A stretch of 64,000 nucleotides of DNA from IMG/VR virus record IMGVR_UViG_3300029288_000077, positions 32,001 through 96,000 of that record, one strand, 5' to 3'. Source of the DNA: a virus. Lineage: Duplodnaviria; Caudoviricetes. Both the position numbers and the translations under genes were made by a program. Under the pieces are notes generated by a model. That model made no database searches. It saw only the letters and a list, made by a program, of their open reading frames with translations, and had not been told where the DNA came from. How positions within the stretch are numbered: the stretch's first letter is position 1; the number at the start of each line of letters is the position of its first letter. Shown piece by piece: positions 11,446 to 57,241 of the stretch.

Positions 11446-11473
11446 CCACACATGACCATACGTTGTGGGTATA

Positions 11474-11501
11474 TTTACTCCCTGACGATTGATGGTATAA
11501 T
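11474..11501 (+). promoter_or_regulatory. Sigma70-like promoter upstream of the ncRNA array
   Basis: TTTACT-N16-TATAAT with extended -10 TG. Confidence 0.7.
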
Positions 11502-11905
11502 ACATTTGAAGATAGCAGAGATCATTGGAAATCGGCGGCACTAGAAAAAGCCAAGAAATGGAGGTTAAATATGGACTGGTCGAGTACAAAGCCCTGACCA
11601 AGCTTTGACGTACGGCAGAGCGAGGAAGGGATCTTCAAGCTTGTGTGGTGTGCTGGTCTGGCCAGGCTAACACAGGTGCGAGGAAGAGTATTGGACCGTG
11701 AAAGTACGCCCCCAGGGATGGGACGCCACCCTGGAGTCACGGTTTCCTTGAAATCCAAAATCTAAGAAAGATGGTGCTCCAATGCGCTAGTTTGATTTGA
11801 CACCAAACCGTTTGACATGTGAATGCTGAAAGACGAAAGTGTGATTGAGTATAACAAATTAATGGAGCGCAAATGCTGTGGCGGTATAAATCCGTAAGGC
11901 ACCAT

Positions 11906-12385
11906 GTTCTTTGAAAAGTAATGTTCTTCTAACCAGGTGCGTGTGGCGACCGAAGACTTTTGTTGTTTTCGGTTTTGTGCTAACAGGTATTTGGTTAGAG
12001 GAAAAGGAGGCTGGCTTACGTTGCCGGAAAACTGGCGGGCTAGCACGCTGTGTGGTGGTAGAAATCCACAAGCCTCCTTCGTTCTTTGAAAAGTAATGGC
12101 TGATGTGGTGGAAAACCGCCCCGCGATTGACTGTCGCACATCATTTGATCCTGGGAGGGCTTGATCACCCTCCCCGATAAAATGACTGGTGTGGGGTGCC
12201 TACGTGCTGGGCTCAAACCATCCAATAGTCAAGGAAAGCGAGCACGCGCATCAGCCAGTTCTTTGAAAAGCGGGTGTTGCGATCTTATGTTGATGTGCAC
12301 AGAGACATAAGACAGGCGACTTGCTACTGCCACGGTGGGATGCAAGTGTGGTTCAATTCCACGAACGCCCATTCTGTTCTTTGAA
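11906..12385 (+). repeat. Dispersed boxA-like motif GTTCTTTGAA(AAG), four copies
   Basis: Copies at 11906-11918, 12081-12093, 12258-12270 and 12376-12385; variant TTCCTTGAAA at 11744; each lies 0-5 nt 3' of a closing stem. Confidence 0.85.
12272..12371 (+). ncRNA. tRNA-like element (acceptor stem plus T-arm; non-canonical D and anticodon region)
   Basis: GGGTGTT/AACGCCC-A acceptor stacked on TGTGG-TTCAATT-CCACG. Confidence 0.6.
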
Positions 12386-13761
12386 TTTTTGCGGTTTGGC
12401 TCGTGCTACCGTTCCGTGCAAACCGGTACTGTCTGGTAGAGTCAGGCCACGAGCCAATAATGTTCCCGAACTGCATACCGGCGGTCGTGCAGGCGGTTGG
12501 TGTGTGGTCGGGATCTGGGGGCCTGATTAGCCCCGCCTACTCCAGGGTGCCCTTAAGTGGACGCCTAAGTGGTGCCGCCGCAGTGCGACGCCCGGAGTAG
12601 TTGTCCCACTGCATTGGTAGATGCAGTGTGTTCGTGCCTGTGCTAAAGGACGAACATGGGGAGCCGCCGTCCCCTAGGAGCAAGGAGATGTCCTACCAGA
12701 GCATCGAACGGCACTTTTGGAATCGCTTAGGGCAGCATCCTTGGCACATGGGCCTAACGTCGGATGGCCAACTACGTGCACGGGATGCTGCCCATTGTTG
12801 CAGGTGAAGCATGAAGATCTTGATCCTAGAAGACTCTGCGAACGCTGTTGGGTGGAACAACATCAAGGCGGCGTTGCCCAATGCTATCAAGGCACCCAAT
12901 CTGTGGGAGTACTTTGATGAAGTGTTCAGGATGCTGAAACTGCCGTGATAACTTCACCAAATGGGTGGTTGTCACCTGATGGTGTTTTTCATGAATGTGC
13001 ACACGCAAGGCACGCTGATTGTGCCGGGAAAATAGCTAGAAGTCACTTACCAGAAAATGAGCCCATTTTTGACTCAGAAAAGATATTAGAAGAGTGGGGG
13101 TATATTAAGATACTTGACGGCGGGGCATGTGTGGCGTATGCTACTGGCGTGGTACACAAAAGGCCGACGCAAGCACAAATCGATGCGGTGTTCGATTACC
13201 ACCAGAAATGTAGGAAGGAACTTCCATATTGGATTGGAGAGCAGGAATGAAAGTTACTCTTGAAATGGATGAAAACCAAGCACGTATCGTACTGCAGGCT
13301 TTGGACTGTTTGTCAAGATTGTACTCCGGGCAAGTAGATGTAGTCCTGCACACAGTGCTTGTACACAGCAAGCGGTGGAAGGAACTGTGTGAGGTGACTG
13401 GTGGGCATGGTTCTGCTATTGAGTCTATCAGACACCTAGCTTTGTTGATCGGTGAGTTGATGACTGGTTTGCCTAGTGGTACTTTCTGGAGTATTGGTAA
13501 CAGACGAGACATGCATGAAAATGCCCAAACTGCTTGGGACATCAATGAAGTGTTGAGACATGCGCTGGCTTGGTTCAGGAATCCTAAAGGCGGAGCAACT
13601 GTTGACTTTGGCGAGCCAATGCATTGGAATCCAGATCAACCACTCCCCAAAGTAAAAATCGAATGAAGCTGTTGCTGTTGGCATTACTGCTGTTTGTGGT
13701 TCGTTTGCTAATCATTGACAATCATTAATCTACATCATAAATAAATAGAGTATAATGCAAG

Positions 13762-15678
13762 GTGATGGGTGCTGCACTGAATATGAAAGATGGCCTGTTC
13801 CGTGACATAGATAATATCATAAATGGGGAAAGTATAAGTACTTTTACCAGTGTGGTGAATACTGGTTTAGTGACCCTCGAACGCCCACCAAATGAAGTAG
13901 TTTTTATAGAATCACCTAAATTTCTAAATGGCCCAAAGGAGCTGTGGCCAGAACAGTATAGGTTTACAAGAGACTTCTACGAGCTTAGTTGTCCTGTCTG
14001 CAATGACTTGGACAAAATGTACCGTGGTGGTGAAATTAAAAGAGAAGACGATGTACTGTTTGAGTATAATGTGTGTCCAAAATGTGGTGCTAGAAAAGAA
14101 GATGTTGTAGAAGCACTCAATTTTTATTATAGCATTAACGGTGTGGTGGGGATGCGTTCCGGTAAGTCTACTGGCATGGGGTGTTTTTTGGCTGCATTTA
14201 CTGCCGATATTTTGTGTGTACCTGATCTGCACAAAAAGCTGGGTATAGTTGAATCGGATGCTTTGGATGGCACGTTTGTGGCCGCTGCACAAAAGCAAGC
14301 TTCAGATACTATATGGAGCAAATTTAAGGGCATGTATGATAATAGTCCTTGGTTCCAGTACTACAAACATGCTTTGCTTGATATTGAGGTGAACGATAAG
14401 CGGTTTAGGCGCGGTGAGTTGTACTGGGAGACAGACAATCTCATACACTGGCAAGATAAACACATACGGCTTACTGCTGTGCCCACCAACTCAGCTACGC
14501 AGGCTGGACGCACGCGCATTTTTGCGGTGATAGACGAGCTGGCTAGGTTAGACTCAGGAGAAAGCAAGCGGTCTGCATCAGAAGTGTACCGCGTGCTTGA
14601 AAACTCATTGTACACTGTGCGTCAAGCTGTGTCTGAGTTGCGTGCAAAAGGCAATATAGAGATACCAGATGCTGTGATGGCTTCTATATCTTCCCCGTTG
14701 TTTCAAACCGACAAGTCTATGAGTCTGTTGGATGATGCTAAGATCGACAAGCGCATATATGCTTTCAAGAAGGCTACGTGGGAATTCAATCCACACTCCA
14801 AAAAAGAAGATTTTGCTTCATTATACGCACGCGATCCGATAGGCACAGAGCGCGATTTTGGTGCCAACCCGCCTGGAGCCGAAAACCCGTTTATTAAGGA
14901 CCCAAACATAATCAAGGCATGCACGGATTACAAGCGCACCTCGTGTTTTACTCTTAGAGAAAATTACTTTGATCTCAAAGCAGGAACAGAAGGTAATGAA
15001 GCTACATTCCATTTTGTGAAGATGGATATTTTGAATATGTCTTATATGAATTTAGCTGAGTACGTGATACACTGTGACCCAGGCGAAACCGGAGACAGCT
15101 TTTCACTTACACTAGCACACAAACAAGACGGTGTTTGTTGTATAGACGGTTACATAGAAATACGCCCGGTTCCGGAGGGAAGTCAATTTAGTAAAGTACC
15201 TCGTTCCGTACACTTTCCCTCAGTGGTGAATTTGATATTGGCTTTGCACAAAAAGATAAAAATCAGATTGGTGACATACGACAAATGGAATAGTACTGAA
15301 CAAATACACCGCCTCATAGATGCAGGTATTATAGCCATAGGTAAAAACCTGACCAGGGATGATCATCTAAATTTCCTGGAAGGTTTGAATAGTGGTTGGG
15401 TTAGTATGCCTGCACCGGAAGTAGAGGTAGCCGATCCTTCAAATATGAGAAATGTGCCGTGTGCCCAGGCACTGTATGAATTGAGTAAATTAAATGATAA
15501 TGGAGCAAAAGTAGATCACCCACCGTATGGTCACAACGACATTATACAGGGCGGGGTTGGGGTATACCGATCTTTGATGCATCCAGACCTAATACCAATT
15601 GAAAAGAAAAAGACCAAACAAACGTGGCAAAACCGACAGAAAGTGCCGCCAGTTACTTTAACCAGACTTAGACGTTAG
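13762..15678 (+). CDS. terL: Terminase large subunit
   Basis: Walker A GMRSGKST, Walker B FAVIDE, RNase H-like HCDPG..DSF, YDKWNS and HNDI. Confidence 0.9.
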   Translation: MMGAALNMKDGLFRDIDNIINGESISTFTSVVNTGLVTLERPPNEVVFIESPKFLNGPKELWPEQYRFTRDFYELSCPVCNDLDKMYRGGEIKREDDVLFEYNVCPKCGARKEDVVEALNFYYSINGVVGMRSGKSTGMGCFLAAFTADILCVPDLHKKLGIVESDALDGTFVAAAQKQASDTIWSKFKGMYDNSPWFQYYKHALLDIEVNDKRFRRGELYWETDNLIHWQDKHIRLTAVPTNSATQAGRTRIFAVIDELARLDSGESKRSASEVYRVLENSLYTVRQAVSELRAKGNIEIPDAVMASISSPLFQTDKSMSLLDDAKIDKRIYAFKKATWEFNPHSKKEDFASLYARDPIGTERDFGANPPGAENPFIKDPNIIKACTDYKRTSCFTLRENYFDLKAGTEGNEATFHFVKMDILNMSYMNLAEYVIHCDPGETGDSFSLTLAHKQDGVCCIDGYIEIRPVPEGSQFSKVPRSVHFPSVVNLILALHKKIKIRLVTYDKWNSTEQIHRLIDAGIIAIGKNLTRDDHLNFLEGLNSGWVSMPAPEVEVADPSNMRNVPCAQALYELSKLNDNGAKVDHPPYGHNDIIQGGVGVYRSLMHPDLIPIEKKKTKQTWQNRQKVPPVTLTRLRR

Positions 15679-31852: not shown

Positions 31853-33730
31853 GTGGCAGACAAGGATAAGAAAAAGCCCACCAACAGCAGCGCTATCATA
31901 GTTAAGGCCAGTGATTTTAGGGACAACCCTGACGAAGGCAAGATTGAAGGCCAAAAGGATATGGTTTATGGTCGATACCGAAGCATAGCCAGTGTCAATC
32001 GCCGTGGATCTTATACTGGCGCTCCCACTTCTACCTCGCAGCAATCCACTGCGATGGTGCCTATTTACTACGATTACCGGTTTTCTACACCAGACAAGTA
32101 CTACTTTCCCAAAGACCGGTTCAATGCCAACTCTACGTGGCGTGATATCTATCGACGCGACGCCACCATCGGTATCGCCACTGACATGTATTCGGAGTTG
32201 CCGTGGTCCGACTTTGATATAGAAGCTGTAGACGACCCTAAGATACAGCAGTGTTATGAAGATATGTTTACCGATTTGGCTTTGGCCCCACAAATGCCTT
32301 TGTTTTCAAAGGACTTTCTAATACACGGAGAGTTCGTAGGGCACTCCCTGTTCAATGAAACTAAGGGGTACTGGGACCGGATCATCTCCCACAACCCAGA
32401 TTATGTGAAAGTCATGGGTGTGGGTTTAGCTTCAGCACAGCCATTATGCTGGTTGCGTCCTACTCCTGACTTTGTGCGTCTTATGAACACTCCAGATCCT
32501 CGGGTACGCAAGTACTTGAATACTATCCCTGGTGAAGTGCTGCGCTCGTTTAAGATGGGCAAGGAAGTGTACCTTGAGCCCATGAATACTACGTACATGC
32601 CTCGCAAAAACACTTCACAAGAGGTGCGCGGTATATCTGTTTATACTCGTTTGTTCCGCATTAACATGTACGAAGATTTCGTGATGAATGCTTCACTGTC
32701 CATAGCCCAACGCAATGCGGCTCCATTGCGCTTGTTCAAGATGGGTGATGTCTCCAGACCTGATGGTTGGATGCCGGGTGCAGAAGACATACAAGCATTT
32801 ACCAATTTGTTGGCTACATCGGAGACAGATCCGTTTGCGGCGCTAATCACTCACCCGTACATCACCGTAGACTATGTGGGTGTAAGCGATAAAGTACTGC
32901 TGATTTCCCGAGAGTGGGAGTTTATTGAGCGTGTGAAGCTGCTAGCATTTGGTGTGTCAAAAGCATTTCTGGTCGGGGAGACATCTTTTGCATCGAGCGT
33001 AGCAGGTTTGCAGACTTTGCTTGAGCGCCTGGCTAACTTTAGGCTGATGTTTGAAGTCAATCTGATGCGTGACAAACTGGCTAAGCCAGTAGCCGAGATG
33101 AACGATTTTTATGAGCATTCCCAGGCGGAGCTGGACCATAGAGTGCGGGTCAAGAACAAAGCTGAGCGCAGGTTGGTGCTACCCACTTTCAAGTGGAAGA
33201 AAAGCCTTGAACCGACTCAAGATCAATCCTTGATGAACACTTGGCGCGACTACAAAGAGCGTGGTTTGATCTCTGATAAGACTTATTTGGCTGGTGGTGG
33301 TGTAGATATAGAGATTGAAAGACGCAATCTCATTGAAGAGATAGAGTACAAAGAGAAGATGATCGAGGAAGGCAAGATTCAGCCTCCTGGCATGGAAGGT
33401 GAAGAGGGCATGGGTGGTGGTCTTGGCGGTGAAGAGCCGGGGTTGCCTCCGCCTCCGGGCGCACACAGGATGCGTGGCGTTCATCCAAACTTTCCACGTC
33501 GATTGCCGTCTATGAGGCACTGGGCGAAAAAGTTGATGGATGACTACACCCCAGGAGATGAGTTAGATTCAAGTAGGATGAGTGTAGACCAAGCCATGGA
33601 TAGATTTAGCAAGTTGAGTCCAAGGGCTAGGAAACAGTTGCTGCACGAGATCAAAAACAAGGTGCCGTCACAAGAGCCATACATGCTGAATGGTGCCGTG
33701 CGGACGGCAAGGAAGAAGCCACATGAATAA
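31853..33730 (+). CDS. Portal protein
   Basis: 625 aa; YRRDATIGIATDMYSELPWSDF, RGISVYTR, VKLLAFGVSKAFLVGE; Gly/Pro/Glu-rich tail. Confidence 0.8.
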   Translation: MADKDKKKPTNSSAIIVKASDFRDNPDEGKIEGQKDMVYGRYRSIASVNRRGSYTGAPTSTSQQSTAMVPIYYDYRFSTPDKYYFPKDRFNANSTWRDIYRRDATIGIATDMYSELPWSDFDIEAVDDPKIQQCYEDMFTDLALAPQMPLFSKDFLIHGEFVGHSLFNETKGYWDRIISHNPDYVKVMGVGLASAQPLCWLRPTPDFVRLMNTPDPRVRKYLNTIPGEVLRSFKMGKEVYLEPMNTTYMPRKNTSQEVRGISVYTRLFRINMYEDFVMNASLSIAQRNAAPLRLFKMGDVSRPDGWMPGAEDIQAFTNLLATSETDPFAALITHPYITVDYVGVSDKVLLISREWEFIERVKLLAFGVSKAFLVGETSFASSVAGLQTLLERLANFRLMFEVNLMRDKLAKPVAEMNDFYEHSQAELDHRVRVKNKAERRLVLPTFKWKKSLEPTQDQSLMNTWRDYKERGLISDKTYLAGGGVDIEIERRNLIEEIEYKEKMIEEGKIQPPGMEGEEGMGGGLGGEEPGLPPPPGAHRMRGVHPNFPRRLPSMRHWAKKLMDDYTPGDELDSSRMSVDQAMDRFSKLSPRARKQLLHEIKNKVPSQEPYMLNGAVRTARKKPHE

Positions 33731-52709: not shown

Positions 52710-53843
52710 ATGAAATTCAACCCGTACTTGGACAAGATGCAGGGCAAGGTCACCATTGACCGAAAAACTGGTGAACCCTTCAACCCGCTGAACTTCTCTG
52801 CAAAGAAGGATGACAGCGGCAAGCGCAAGGTGTCTGCTAGTGAGCGCCTGTTCAACAAGGACAACGAGCTGAACGCTTCCAGCAAGAAAGACGCGCTGCA
52901 GAAGATCGCTGCCCTGTTCGAGATGGTGCAGGACGGCGAGTTCGAAGTCGCCACTCAGCCTGAGGGCTTCAAGGTTGATGCTGCCGAGCAGGATGCCCTG
53001 CTCAAGCAGGCTTATGCCGACCCGTCTGGTGAGGGGTTTGCTAAGCTTGGTCAGCAGATGTTGACCGTGGTGCGCGAGGTCATCGACTACGAAGGCGTAA
53101 CCCGCAAGCTGTGGATGGATCGGCCGGTGAAGGCTGGCGAGACCATTCGGTACGACAAAGACGTGCATGTGGTGGCCTACGTCATCGGTGAAGATGGCGA
53201 GACTCCGCAGAGCGTGGTTGGTGGTAAGTACTTCTTCCCGCCCGAGTTCGAAGTGTCCGCTAACGTGTCCATCGAGCTGAAGGACCAGTACCGGTCGCAG
53301 TACAACATCCTTGAGCGTGCACAGGACAAGGCTCGCCAGGCCATTGAGTACCGCGAAGACCTGGCTGGTATTCGCCTGCTTCGTCGTGCATCCAACGTGG
53401 TTAACACCACCGTTGCGTTTGCTTCGATGAACCTGGGCGCGTTCGAGTCCCTGCGCTACCAGATCGAGCAGCACCGCCTCATGACTGCCGCTTTCCTGAT
53501 TCACCGTCAGGAAGTGTCCGACATCGTGAACGTGCTGACCGCACAGGTTGACCCAGTGACTCAGCGTGAGATCATCATGGCTGGGTACATCGGTCACATC
53601 CTGAATACCGCAGTCATCACCACTGCTGGTACTAACAACATGTACGAGATCCTGCAGCCTGGTGAAGTGTTTGCAGTGACTCTGCCTGAGTACCTGGGCG
53701 GCATCTCGCAACGCAGTGATCTCATGAGCGAGCCTTACACCGAGGCAGTGAACGGCAAGCCCCGGCGCGGGTTCTACTGGTGGGAGATGCTCTGCCTGGC
53801 ACTGATCAACGCCAAGGGCGTTGCCTACGGTCAGAAGATCTAA
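52710..53843 (+). CDS. Major capsid protein (HK97 fold)
   Basis: 377 aa; position; strongly biased codon usage; VREVIDYEGVTRK, PEFEV, AQDKARQAIEYRED. Confidence 0.85.
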   Translation: MKFNPYLDKMQGKVTIDRKTGEPFNPLNFSAKKDDSGKRKVSASERLFNKDNELNASSKKDALQKIAALFEMVQDGEFEVATQPEGFKVDAAEQDALLKQAYADPSGEGFAKLGQQMLTVVREVIDYEGVTRKLWMDRPVKAGETIRYDKDVHVVAYVIGEDGETPQSVVGGKYFFPPEFEVSANVSIELKDQYRSQYNILERAQDKARQAIEYREDLAGIRLLRRASNVVNTTVAFASMNLGAFESLRYQIEQHRLMTAAFLIHRQEVSDIVNVLTAQVDPVTQREIIMAGYIGHILNTAVITTAGTNNMYEILQPGEVFAVTLPEYLGGISQRSDLMSEPYTEAVNGKPRRGFYWWEMLCLALINAKGVAYGQKI

Positions 53844-56002: not shown

Positions 56003-57241
56003 ATGGTAACATTGTTGGCAGTGTTTTTGTCTCATAAAATACGTCTTTATCCAAATGACAAACAGGTGTCTTACCTGAAACGTGCTTGTGGTATCAAGCG
56101 TTTTGCTTATAATTGGGCGTTAGCTGAGTCTAGAAAACTATATGAGCAAGGCATAAAAACTTCCGGTTACGATCTCAGTAAACGATTTAACGCAATAAAA
56201 CGGGAACAGTTTCCTTTCGTACTAGAAGTATCAAAATGGGTGTCTCAAAAAGCCATTTATGATCTTGAAGACGCTTACAAAAATTGGTGGAGTAAACGTG
56301 CGCGTGCCCCCAAATTCAAGAAAAAAGGTAAGTGCAAAGATAGTTTTTATCTGGCCAATGATGCAACAAAAACTGTTGAGCACAGAATTTATATTTCTAA
56401 GTGTGGGTGGGTGCGCATGTCTCAGTCTTTGCGTTTTCCTGGTCACGTGATGTCTGTAGTAATTTCAAGTGAATATGCTAAGTGGCATGCTTCTATCCAA
56501 GTGGAATTGGACGGCACCTGGTCTTGTCCTCATACTTGCAAAACCCAAGCAGTGTGTGGATTGGACATGGGTGTACGTGACTTAGTGGTATTAGATGATG
56601 GCACTAAGTACTTAGCCCCTAGGAGTCTGCGTAAGTCCGAGAAAAAGTTGAAGAGACTGAATCGTGTAGTCTCAAGGAGGGTAAAAGGATCAAACCGTAG
56701 GAAGAAAGCTGTGCATATACTAAGTAGAGTCCATGAGAAAGTGACTAACATACGCAAGGACTGTATACATAAGATCACTGCTAAACTAGTAGAAGACTAC
56801 CGTATCATAGGTATGGAAGATTTGAACGTCAAGGGTATGATCAAAAATCATCACTTGGCCAAGTCTGTGTCTGATGCTGCGTTTGGTACAGTCAAAAGCC
56901 AATTGGAGTACAAGACTGAGCTGTCAGGATCAGTATTAGTCAAAGCAGATCGCTTTTACCCATCGAGTAAGATGTGTTCAAACTGTGGACATGTCTTAGA
57001 CACTTTGCCGTTGCGTATACGTGTTTGGACTTGTCCTGGGTGCGGTGCAGTACATGATCGTGATGTCAATGCTGCTAAAAATTTACTAAATGTCGCCTTA
57101 AGGTATAAGGAGACTGTAAACGCTCGTGGAGTAGAAAGCTCTGGTACTGGTGATTTTACTAGTACGAAACTGTCTACTGTGAAGCGAGTACCCGGCAGCC
57201 GCAGACCAACGGTGGTTTCGGTTCAAGTCCGGGGTTCCTAA
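56003..57241 (+). mobile_element. tnpB: Solo TnpB RNA-guided endonuclease (IS200/IS605/IS607-related); no transposase adjacent; real start may be 56021
   Basis: HKIRLYP HTH; RuvC GLDMG, MEDL and DRDVNAA; Zn finger CSNC/CPGC; structured 3' end. Confidence 0.93.

Follow-up and report, generated by a model that had tools for sequence, protein, structure and literature searches.

The 64,000-nt window analyzed here spans positions 32,001 to 96,000 of a Caudoviricetes phage contig, C2 (IMG/VR record IMGVR_UViG_3300029288_000077; window G000:C2:32001-96000), and all array coordinates below are window positions. Its genes, almost all on the + strand, include those for the large terminase (13762–15678), the portal (31853–33730) and the major head protein (52710–53843). 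Upstream of the terminase gene lies the element that concerns us, a promoter followed by a row of stem-closed modules with copies of a short motif between them. An earlier note, made from the sequence alone, had described it as a promoter-driven array of structured non-coding RNA (ncRNA) modules punctuated by a boxA-like motif. The whole contig measures 183,765 bp, and its first 30 bases recur 127 bp from its end; because the ends overlap by 127 bp, we take C2 to be a circular, complete phage assembly. Six tRNA genes of the phage's own lie elsewhere on C2.

Layout and folding of the array

The stretch from 11446 to 12944 is the second-longest in the phage without a + strand open reading frame (ORF) of at least 75 aa, and its G+C of 0.51 is the highest among the ORF-free gaps listed. 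The promoter heads this region as the earlier note had it (Table 1), and no credible coding sequence follows: the three stop codons are present in all six frames, and for the largest ORF of the array, 125 aa on the minus strand, neither a Pfam match nor a homologue turned up among 5.8 billion proteins. An alternative genetic code was considered and rejected, as no single stop-codon reassignment opens the region. Searches for known RNA families gave a similar picture. In the array, Rfam returned only two chance matches, mir-124 and FMN, at gathering thresholds and E ≤ 10, and ARAGORN found 0 genes in the window with default settings and made inconsistent calls at relaxed thresholds. The earlier note had recognized no known family here, and had named a conserved protein ORF and a full Rfam match as grounds for abandoning the idea; neither was found.

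The + strand folds to a total energy of −394 kcal/mol, compared to −317 kcal/mol for the minus strand, an asymmetry that partly reflects the genome-wide excess of G over C. Against dinucleotide shuffles, the majority of the modules score as the more stably folded (z from −2.5 to −9.6; two stretches lie near −1.4), which agrees with the structured region first proposed, and they remain separate domains in the centroid fold of the full predicted 1.3-kb transcript. All nine stem pairs that had been listed with their sequences are present: those with coordinates are exactly where they were placed, and the two without, TCCCGA/TCGGGA and CTACTCC/GGAGTAG, lie at 12464/12508 and 12537/12594. A 17-bp stem reported at 11924/11987 is real, but its length was misjudged: it belongs to the longer, imperfect hairpin of M3, with arms at 11924–11944 and 11983–12003 and a folding energy of −43 kcal/mol on the + strand compared to −18.9 kcal/mol on the minus strand.

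Table 1. Features of the array and of its flanks, in window positions; z is the folding score of a stretch.
Feature	Position	Strand	Evidence
Sigma-70-type promoter, TTTACT-16-TATAAT, extended −10 TG upstream	11474–11501	+	10/12 matches
5' leader domain, able to pair through its 5' part with the 11744 motif variant	11506–11694	+	z = −2.9 (fold of 11506–11770)
M1, 49-nt hairpin module, closed by ACCGTGA/TCACGGT	11695–11743	+	z = −3.1
Degenerate boxA-like variant TTCCTTGAAATCC, 13 nt	11744–11756	+	Motif search, leader fold
M2, tRNA top-half mimic	11771–11905	+	z = −1.4
boxA copy 1, GTTCTTTGAAAAG	11906–11918	+	Exact repeat
M3, 33-pair hairpin including 7 G-U	11924–12003	+	z = −9.6
M4, tRNA top-half mimic	12004–12079	+	z = −2.5
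boxA copy 2, GTTCTTTGAAAAG	12081–12093	+	Exact repeat
M5, 161-nt multi-branch module, 11-bp closing stem	12097–12257	+	z = −3.6
boxA copy 3, GTTCTTTGAAAAG	12258–12270	+	Exact repeat
M6, cloverleaf-shaped tRNA mimic, closing stem GGGTGTT/AACGCCC	12272–12371	+	z = −3.6
boxA copy 4, GTTCTTTGAATTT (exact 10-mer 12376–12385)	12376–12388	+	Exact repeat
M7, 62-nt module, 10-bp closing stem TTGGCTCGTG/CACGAGCCAA	12396–12457	+	z = −3.0
M8, three G+C-rich hairpins	12458–12600	+	z = −4.1
M9, three short hairpins	12607–12674	+	Fold; z = −1.4 for 12601–12729
M10, terminal hairpin module, GGGCAGCATCC/GGATGCTGCCC	12730–12793	+	z = −5.7
First downstream ORF, 45 aa, behind AGGTGA	12811–12948	+	ORF list

Seven of the modules (M1, M3, M5 and M7–M10) match nothing known in Rfam or ARAGORN. 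The flanking boxA copies 2 and 3 can lengthen the M5 stem to 22-nt arms with 82% complementarity, and the M8 hairpins lie at 12463–12514 (with 6 G-U pairs), 12518–12534 and 12537–12600. In the leader, an 8-codon mini-ORF (MDWSSTKP, 11572–11598) stands 5 nt behind a GGAGG and could be a leader peptide or a chance occurrence. At the other end, M10 has no canonical U-tract 3' of its hairpin and the array no canonical terminator at its 3' end, so a polymerase modified in the way proposed below may run on into the packaging genes. Transcription of the array probably reads through into the 45-aa ORF and on towards the terminase gene.

The motif between the modules

The 10-mer GTTCTTTGAA occurs exactly at 11906, 12081, 12258 and 12376, that is, four times within 480 nt, compared to an arithmetic expectation of ~0.0014 copies per 1.45 kb of one strand. 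Copies 1–3 are identical over 13 nt and copies 1 and 2 over 18 nt. These four are the only copies in the phage contig; the 1.26-Mb bin to which C2 belongs holds 12, against ~2.4 expected. As the earlier note had seen, the four exact copies and the variant at 11744 each follow a closing stem by 0–5 nt. The exact copies also precede the 5' strand of the next helix by 1–10 nt, and the linkers between the first six domains are almost only boxA, GUUCUUUGAA(AAG). The variant may be sequestered in the leader helix, judging from the modeled fold. Because a stem of at least 7 bp (G-U allowed) ends 0–5 nt before 47.5% of random sites in this lax test, a preceding stem at five of five motif sites is only weakly significant, and the weight of the evidence lies on the exact repeats and the folding scores.

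Compared to the gamma-proteobacterial boxA consensus GYTCTTTAANA (PMC5725501), the array motif GUUCUUUGAAA agrees at 10/11 positions. It also agrees, as GTTCTTTGAAA, at 10/11 positions with (AU)GAUCUUUGAAA, the core of the B. subtilis rrn element. That element, AUGAUCUUUGAAA, binds B. subtilis NusB, as measured by nuclear magnetic resonance (PMC13753749). Mutating C4 and T6 inactivates boxA (PMC5725501); both bases are present in the array motif.

A further likeness comes from the bacterium with which C2 was binned, a genome of ~1 Mb (main contig 775 kb) in an order whose genomes measure 0.4–0.9 Mb. This host encodes NusB, and its 23S leader carries GTTCTCTGACAAC ~170 nt before the 23S gene. 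In 20 aligned 23S leaders of the same genus, the conserved island after the promoter and hairpins reads ..ACTTTGACAACAGAATCC, and the array motif resembles it. Overall the motif is not enriched in the relatives of the host, where most genomic copies are due to chance. The host 16S and 23S (1,748 and 4,243 nt) are separated by ~250 kb on the contig; both are longer than usual, which suggests insertions.

We then asked about recurrence with exact-pattern scans in phage contigs. The same 12-mer lies twice before the tmRNA of an unrelated phage contig (L007), before both a tRNA-like RNA with a large insert and a tmRNA in L009, three times behind Bacteroidota-type promoters and ahead of a GOLLD RNA in L008, seven times inside an 18-tRNA array in L250, and around a module followed by a tmRNA-like RNA in L086. 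Two terminase relatives of the phage, G003 and G409, use GTTCTTTGACAA instead. In G003 (47% terminase identity), two copies of GTTCTTTGACAATC lie within a tRNA and YrlA array whose order is promoter, ORF, boxA, hairpin, tRNA-Met, boxA, module, tRNA-Ile, Pro, Pro, then three or four YrlA-like RNAs (Rfam E from 5e-13 to 3e-6), Ro60 and RtcB. In G409 (45% identity), a hairpin, GTTCTTTGACAAGG and a YrlA-like RNA lie 2.4 kb upstream of the terminase gene. A literature search returned nothing linking boxA to phage tRNA or ncRNA arrays, GOLLD, ROOL or YrlA.

By its sequence, its likeness to the host rRNA leader and its recurrence before stable-RNA genes, the punctuating motif is boxA, which upholds what the earlier note had recognized from resemblance. 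Its constancy across such different phages would fit a conserved host factor better than a phage-specific nuclease.

Some loci met along the way are worth recording. In L009 (IMGVR_UViG_3300028920_000149, minus strand ~2030–1870), a ~160-nt RNA with a tRNA acceptor stem, D-arm, T-arm and long insert lies between two boxA copies ahead of the tmRNA; it is missed by ARAGORN and Rfam and parallels M2 and M6. L063 (IMGVR_UViG_3300032164_000003), a terminase relative, has a boxA-punctuated operon of tRNAs and 3–4 tandem YrlA-like Y RNAs (minus strand ~6250–980), directly followed by Ro60 (TROVE and vWA domains), RtcB and further tRNAs, and looks like a phage-borne Ro/Y-RNA/RtcB RNA-repair module. 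In L137 (FLNX01001625.1, 3480–3900), a 114-nt unit made of GTTCTTTGAAAAG and a module of three hairpins with the closing stem GGTTC/GAACC is repeated three times in tandem, directly upstream of a gene that, judged by eye from raw DNA, would encode an AbiEii/DUF1814-type nucleotidyltransferase toxin; the repeats may be an RNA antitoxin-like array. L091 (Ga0114952_1001820, 300–720) holds a bacterial tRNA-Thr/Tyr/Gly ... Thr-tuf operon with two duplications of a segment that comprises the tRNA-Gly 3' part and GTTCTTTGAAAAAA, which shows that boxA-like motifs also occur inside cellular tRNA operons. When metagenomes were scanned for boxA pairs, an unrelated satellite-like repeat overwhelmed the matches.

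Modules that resemble half a tRNA

Three modules, M2, M4 and M6, are tRNA top-half mimics in their modeled folds, with an acceptor-like stem stacked on a T-arm to 12–13 bp in total (8+4, 9+4 and 7+5 bp, respectively). The acceptor-like stem of M2 is 8 bp long, and the module further contains a single long, irregular hairpin and a T-stem of 4 bp with the 7-nt loop UAUAAAU. In M4 the acceptor-like stem measures 9 bp, and an inner hairpin is accompanied by a T-stem, again of 4 bp, with the loop UAGAAAU. Both loops retain T54 and A58 and are without T55 and C56, and the 3' halves of the two modules are paralogous. In M6, a 7-bp acceptor stem is followed without an intervening base by a 5-bp T-stem with the canonical loop UUCAAUU; the discriminator is A, no CCA is encoded, and two non-tRNA hairpins stand in place of the D and anticodon arms. 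The phage has 4 copies of the T-loop 11-mer GGTWNAAWTCC, compared to 1.4 expected; one lies in tRNA-Tyr and the other three fall within a 470-nt stretch of the array. The acceptor stems of the three modules share no common sequence, yet all are paired. On comparison of the sequences, we take this as a small, paralogue-level form of covariation.

The earlier note had counted tRNA mimics among the possible products. In acceptor and T-arm geometry this holds for these three modules; as true tRNAs they fail, with 0 ARAGORN genes in the window, no RF00005 match at E ≤ 10, and only the acceptor stem and T-arm present. M4 is called a tRNA by ARAGORN at a lowered threshold only. Likewise, neither the Rfam nor the ARAGORN models find a tmRNA (a tRNA-like domain with a tag frame) in M2, M4 or M6, and YrlA (RF02553) gives no match at E ≤ 10. 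No TROVE or RtcB gene was found in the bin. The layout also differs from that of a CRISPR array, taken as 24–48-nt repeats with unique spacers of 25–70 nt and regular spacing: here the repeat is 10–18 nt long, the start-to-start distances are 175, 177 and 118 nt, and the inserts are structured. An attP or tRNA 3'-end origin was dropped, as the array has no similarity to any host tRNA.

Among the proteins encoded next to the array, Pfam and PHROGs scans found no RNA enzyme; a small adjoining protein has a regulator-like C-terminus. Farther along the window, a TnpB/IS605 OrfB-type gene (56003–57241; OrfB_IS605, Cas12f1-like TNB and HTH domains) sits amid the phage structural genes, and Rfam matched no guide RNA for it. 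On the binned host's own contig (G000:C1:426400-427400, minus strand), 3' of the 16S gene, a genuine tRNA-Ile(GAU) is surrounded by tRNA-like fragments or interrupted duplicates: two partial copies of the tRNA 5' part (GCGCGGTTAGCTC...) with long inserts on its 5' side, and an extra, insert-carrying copy of the tRNA 3' end on its 3' side.

Interpretation and comparison with known systems

We read the array as a stable-RNA operon of a complete ~184-kb phage, transcribed by the host RNA polymerase and built like a miniature rRNA operon, in which host Nus factors are reloaded before each excised module, and we give this reading a probability of roughly 0.6. In rRNA (rrn) operons, boxA-bound NusB-S10, NusA, NusG and SuhB form a ring at the RNA exit that fixes the 5' element, resists termination and promotes the annealing of distant segments, such as the leader-trailer helix (PMC8632103). 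In the array, a 1.3-kb untranslated + strand RNA would start from the promoter and fold into at least ten independent stem-closed domains. Each nascent boxA (the proposed NusB-S10 target is GUUCUUUGAAAAG) would recruit NusB-S10, with NusA and NusG, onto the elongating polymerase. The complex would keep the polymerase going through a long, untranslated, stem-rich and U-flanked transcript, and would retain at the RNA exit the 5' arm of the closing helix that comes next, which would allow a long-range helix (up to ~160 nt) to form. Each domain would be excised, by RNase P at acceptor-like 5' ends and by RNase Z, E or III on the 3' side. Excision would sever the tether to the previous boxA, so that Nus loading would be renewed; boxA may thus be reiterated, as in the 16S-23S spacer, because excising each unit cuts the RNA tether. 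The products would include M2, M4 and M6, which, without an anticodon, would be fit to engage enzymes that read the top half of tRNA. It is our guess that the released mimics act as decoys or competitors for tRNA-binding host factors.

If boxA is reloaded between units, phages would have copied the rRNA-operon strategy of antitermination with co-transcriptional folding of long-range helices for their own stable RNAs. The motif stands before tmRNA, GOLLD, YrlA, tRNA and unknown modules in other phages, so a simple boxA-anchored search could find phage RNA genes, possibly many that are unannotated. M2, M4 and M6, as tRNA top halves that have no anticodon, would represent a tRNA mimic of a new kind, with possible anti-defense or translation-related roles.

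Several observations weigh against this reading. The folds of M2 and of 12601–12729 are no better than those of many shuffles (z about −1.4), and in equilibrium folds boxA bases are unpaired only a little more often than average, because neighboring copies can pair with each other. The true tRNAs of the phage are not flanked by boxA. The link between phage and host is suggested by binning and similar G+C only, and no related terminase was found in 400 genomes of the host's order. No Rho RNA-binding domain was found in the bin (97.5% complete), so the classic anti-Rho role of boxA may not apply. Finally, DNA similarity revealed no homologue of any module in the phage collection, the rest of the bin, the rest of the phage or other DNA windows, and therefore no covariation support. 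In the closest terminase relative (59% identity), 26 kb of sequence contain no such array.

Other searches for relatives of the array were similarly empty. The 400 same-order genomes gave noise only (E 0.003–0.009), the terminase relatives (≤59% identity) have no ORF-free gap directly upstream of the terminase gene, and the remaining contig of the closest one lacks such a gap as well. In tblastn, the small proteins that flank the array matched nothing at the loci of the relatives, and an M6 covariance model (R1), run against the full records of 17 relatives and the whole bin, returned the query alone. M7 was also aligned with the hairpin that follows boxA copy 1 in G003, but the result was unconvincing and was dropped.

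It is unlikely, though worth weighing, that the motif is mainly an RNA processing mark rather than a site of Nus loading, either an A/U-rich single-stranded site for RNase E or Y or, through paired copies, an RNase III stem; on this view, too, the array would give rise to a polycistronic precursor of ncRNAs. The exact fit of the motif to the linkers between stems is what such a mark would look like, as is the pairing of copies 2 and 3 around M5, and in L137 the motif heads each tandem RNA unit upstream of the toxin-like gene, a layout typical of processed antitoxin RNA arrays. A nuclease site would not, however, be expected to keep a boxA consensus in phages whose hosts and base compositions differ greatly (L007, L008, L009, L250), nor to match the conserved element in the rRNA leader of the binned host. 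The two roles are compatible.

More speculative still, and in our view doubtful, is the broader proposal that M2, M4 and M6 are a new class of phage tRNA top-half minihelices that mature through RNase P and the CCA-adding enzyme. They would serve as decoys or sponges for host factors that read the acceptor and T-arm, such as tRNA-targeting defense nucleases or nucleotidyltransferase toxins, with reiterated boxA as a general phage device for such untranslated RNA cargo. If this were true, boxA would become a search handle for undiscovered phage ncRNA genes.

We think it improbable that the array is instead a decayed tRNA array, with M2, M4 and M6 as pseudo-tRNAs that have lost their D and anticodon arms and the rest as debris, left as a functionless remnant or as a long 5' leader of the packaging operon. 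In favor of decay, the same motif accompanies genuine tRNA arrays in the relatives, remnants of acceptor stems and T-arms can be seen, and no terminator separates the array from the genes downstream. Yet decay would hardly leave four identical 10-mers and three identical 13-mers, or acceptor and T stems that are intact with a different sequence in each copy. The non-tRNA modules fold very strongly (M3 and M10 above all), the Rfam tRNA model gives nothing even at E = 10, and 1.3 kb of junk would be unusual in a phage that is otherwise densely coding.

An element acting as DNA, with the direct repeats as sites for a packaging protein (pac), a regulator or a replication initiator, or as −35 elements of internal promoters, is very improbable: the array does lie 0.85 kb upstream of the terminase gene and beside the small protein with the regulator-like C-terminus, and the motif does contain TTGAAA (TTGACA in the relatives), with a similar TTCCTTGACA as the −35 of a real G003 promoter, but a −10-like hexamer accompanies only 1/4 copies (a weak one, at 17 nt, on which ground internal promoters were rejected), the distances of 175, 177 and 118 bp between copies are unlike those of iterons, the cumulative GC skew keeps climbing across the region without a turn, every copy of the motif stands on the presumed transcribed strand, flanked by RNA stems whose pairing relies on G-U, and the motif directly precedes tmRNA, tRNA and GOLLD genes in unrelated phages.

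As a stable-RNA operon punctuated by boxA, the array can be compared to several known systems. With the boxB-boxA-boxC leader and spacer of bacterial rrn operons it shares a strong promoter, a long untranslated structured transcript, a near-consensus boxA repeated within the operon just 5' of the 5' strand of a long-range closing helix, G/U-rich sequence after boxA, and products released by processing (for the array, both the transcript and its processing are predicted). It differs in having four or five boxA in 640 nt compared to two in ~5 kb, in its cargo of small novel RNAs rather than rRNA, in being phage-encoded, and in a binned host that seems to be without Rho.

The tRNA gene cluster of phage T4 is likewise polycistronic and yields stable RNAs, including species 1 and 2 (rnaC, rnaD), that are matured by host tRNA enzymes. 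The array resembles it as a phage polycistronic stable-RNA transcript with small RNAs that have tRNA-like ends, their processing being predicted; unlike the T4 cluster, it contains no true tRNA, and the module sequences are unrelated. We know of no description of boxA punctuation of the T4 cluster.

YrlA Y RNAs, the partners of Ro60/Rsr, also mimic tRNA by retaining the acceptor stem and T-arm, and YrlA-like RNAs sit behind the same boxA in terminase relatives of the phage. YrlA is circularly permuted, however, with the T-arm before the D-arm and its termini in the Ro-binding stem, whereas M2, M4 and M6 keep the normal order and have no D-arm.

Outside rRNA, boxA carries the polymerase through untranslated RNA in, for example, CRISPR arrays and the suhB leader (PMC5725501), and CRISPR operons are also mentioned as boxA users elsewhere (PMC13753749). 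In those cases a single boxA stands at the leader, whereas in the array it is reiterated between units whose processing is predicted. What is particular to the array is this fourfold boxA punctuation together with a cargo of only non-tRNA modules, three of them top-half mimics.

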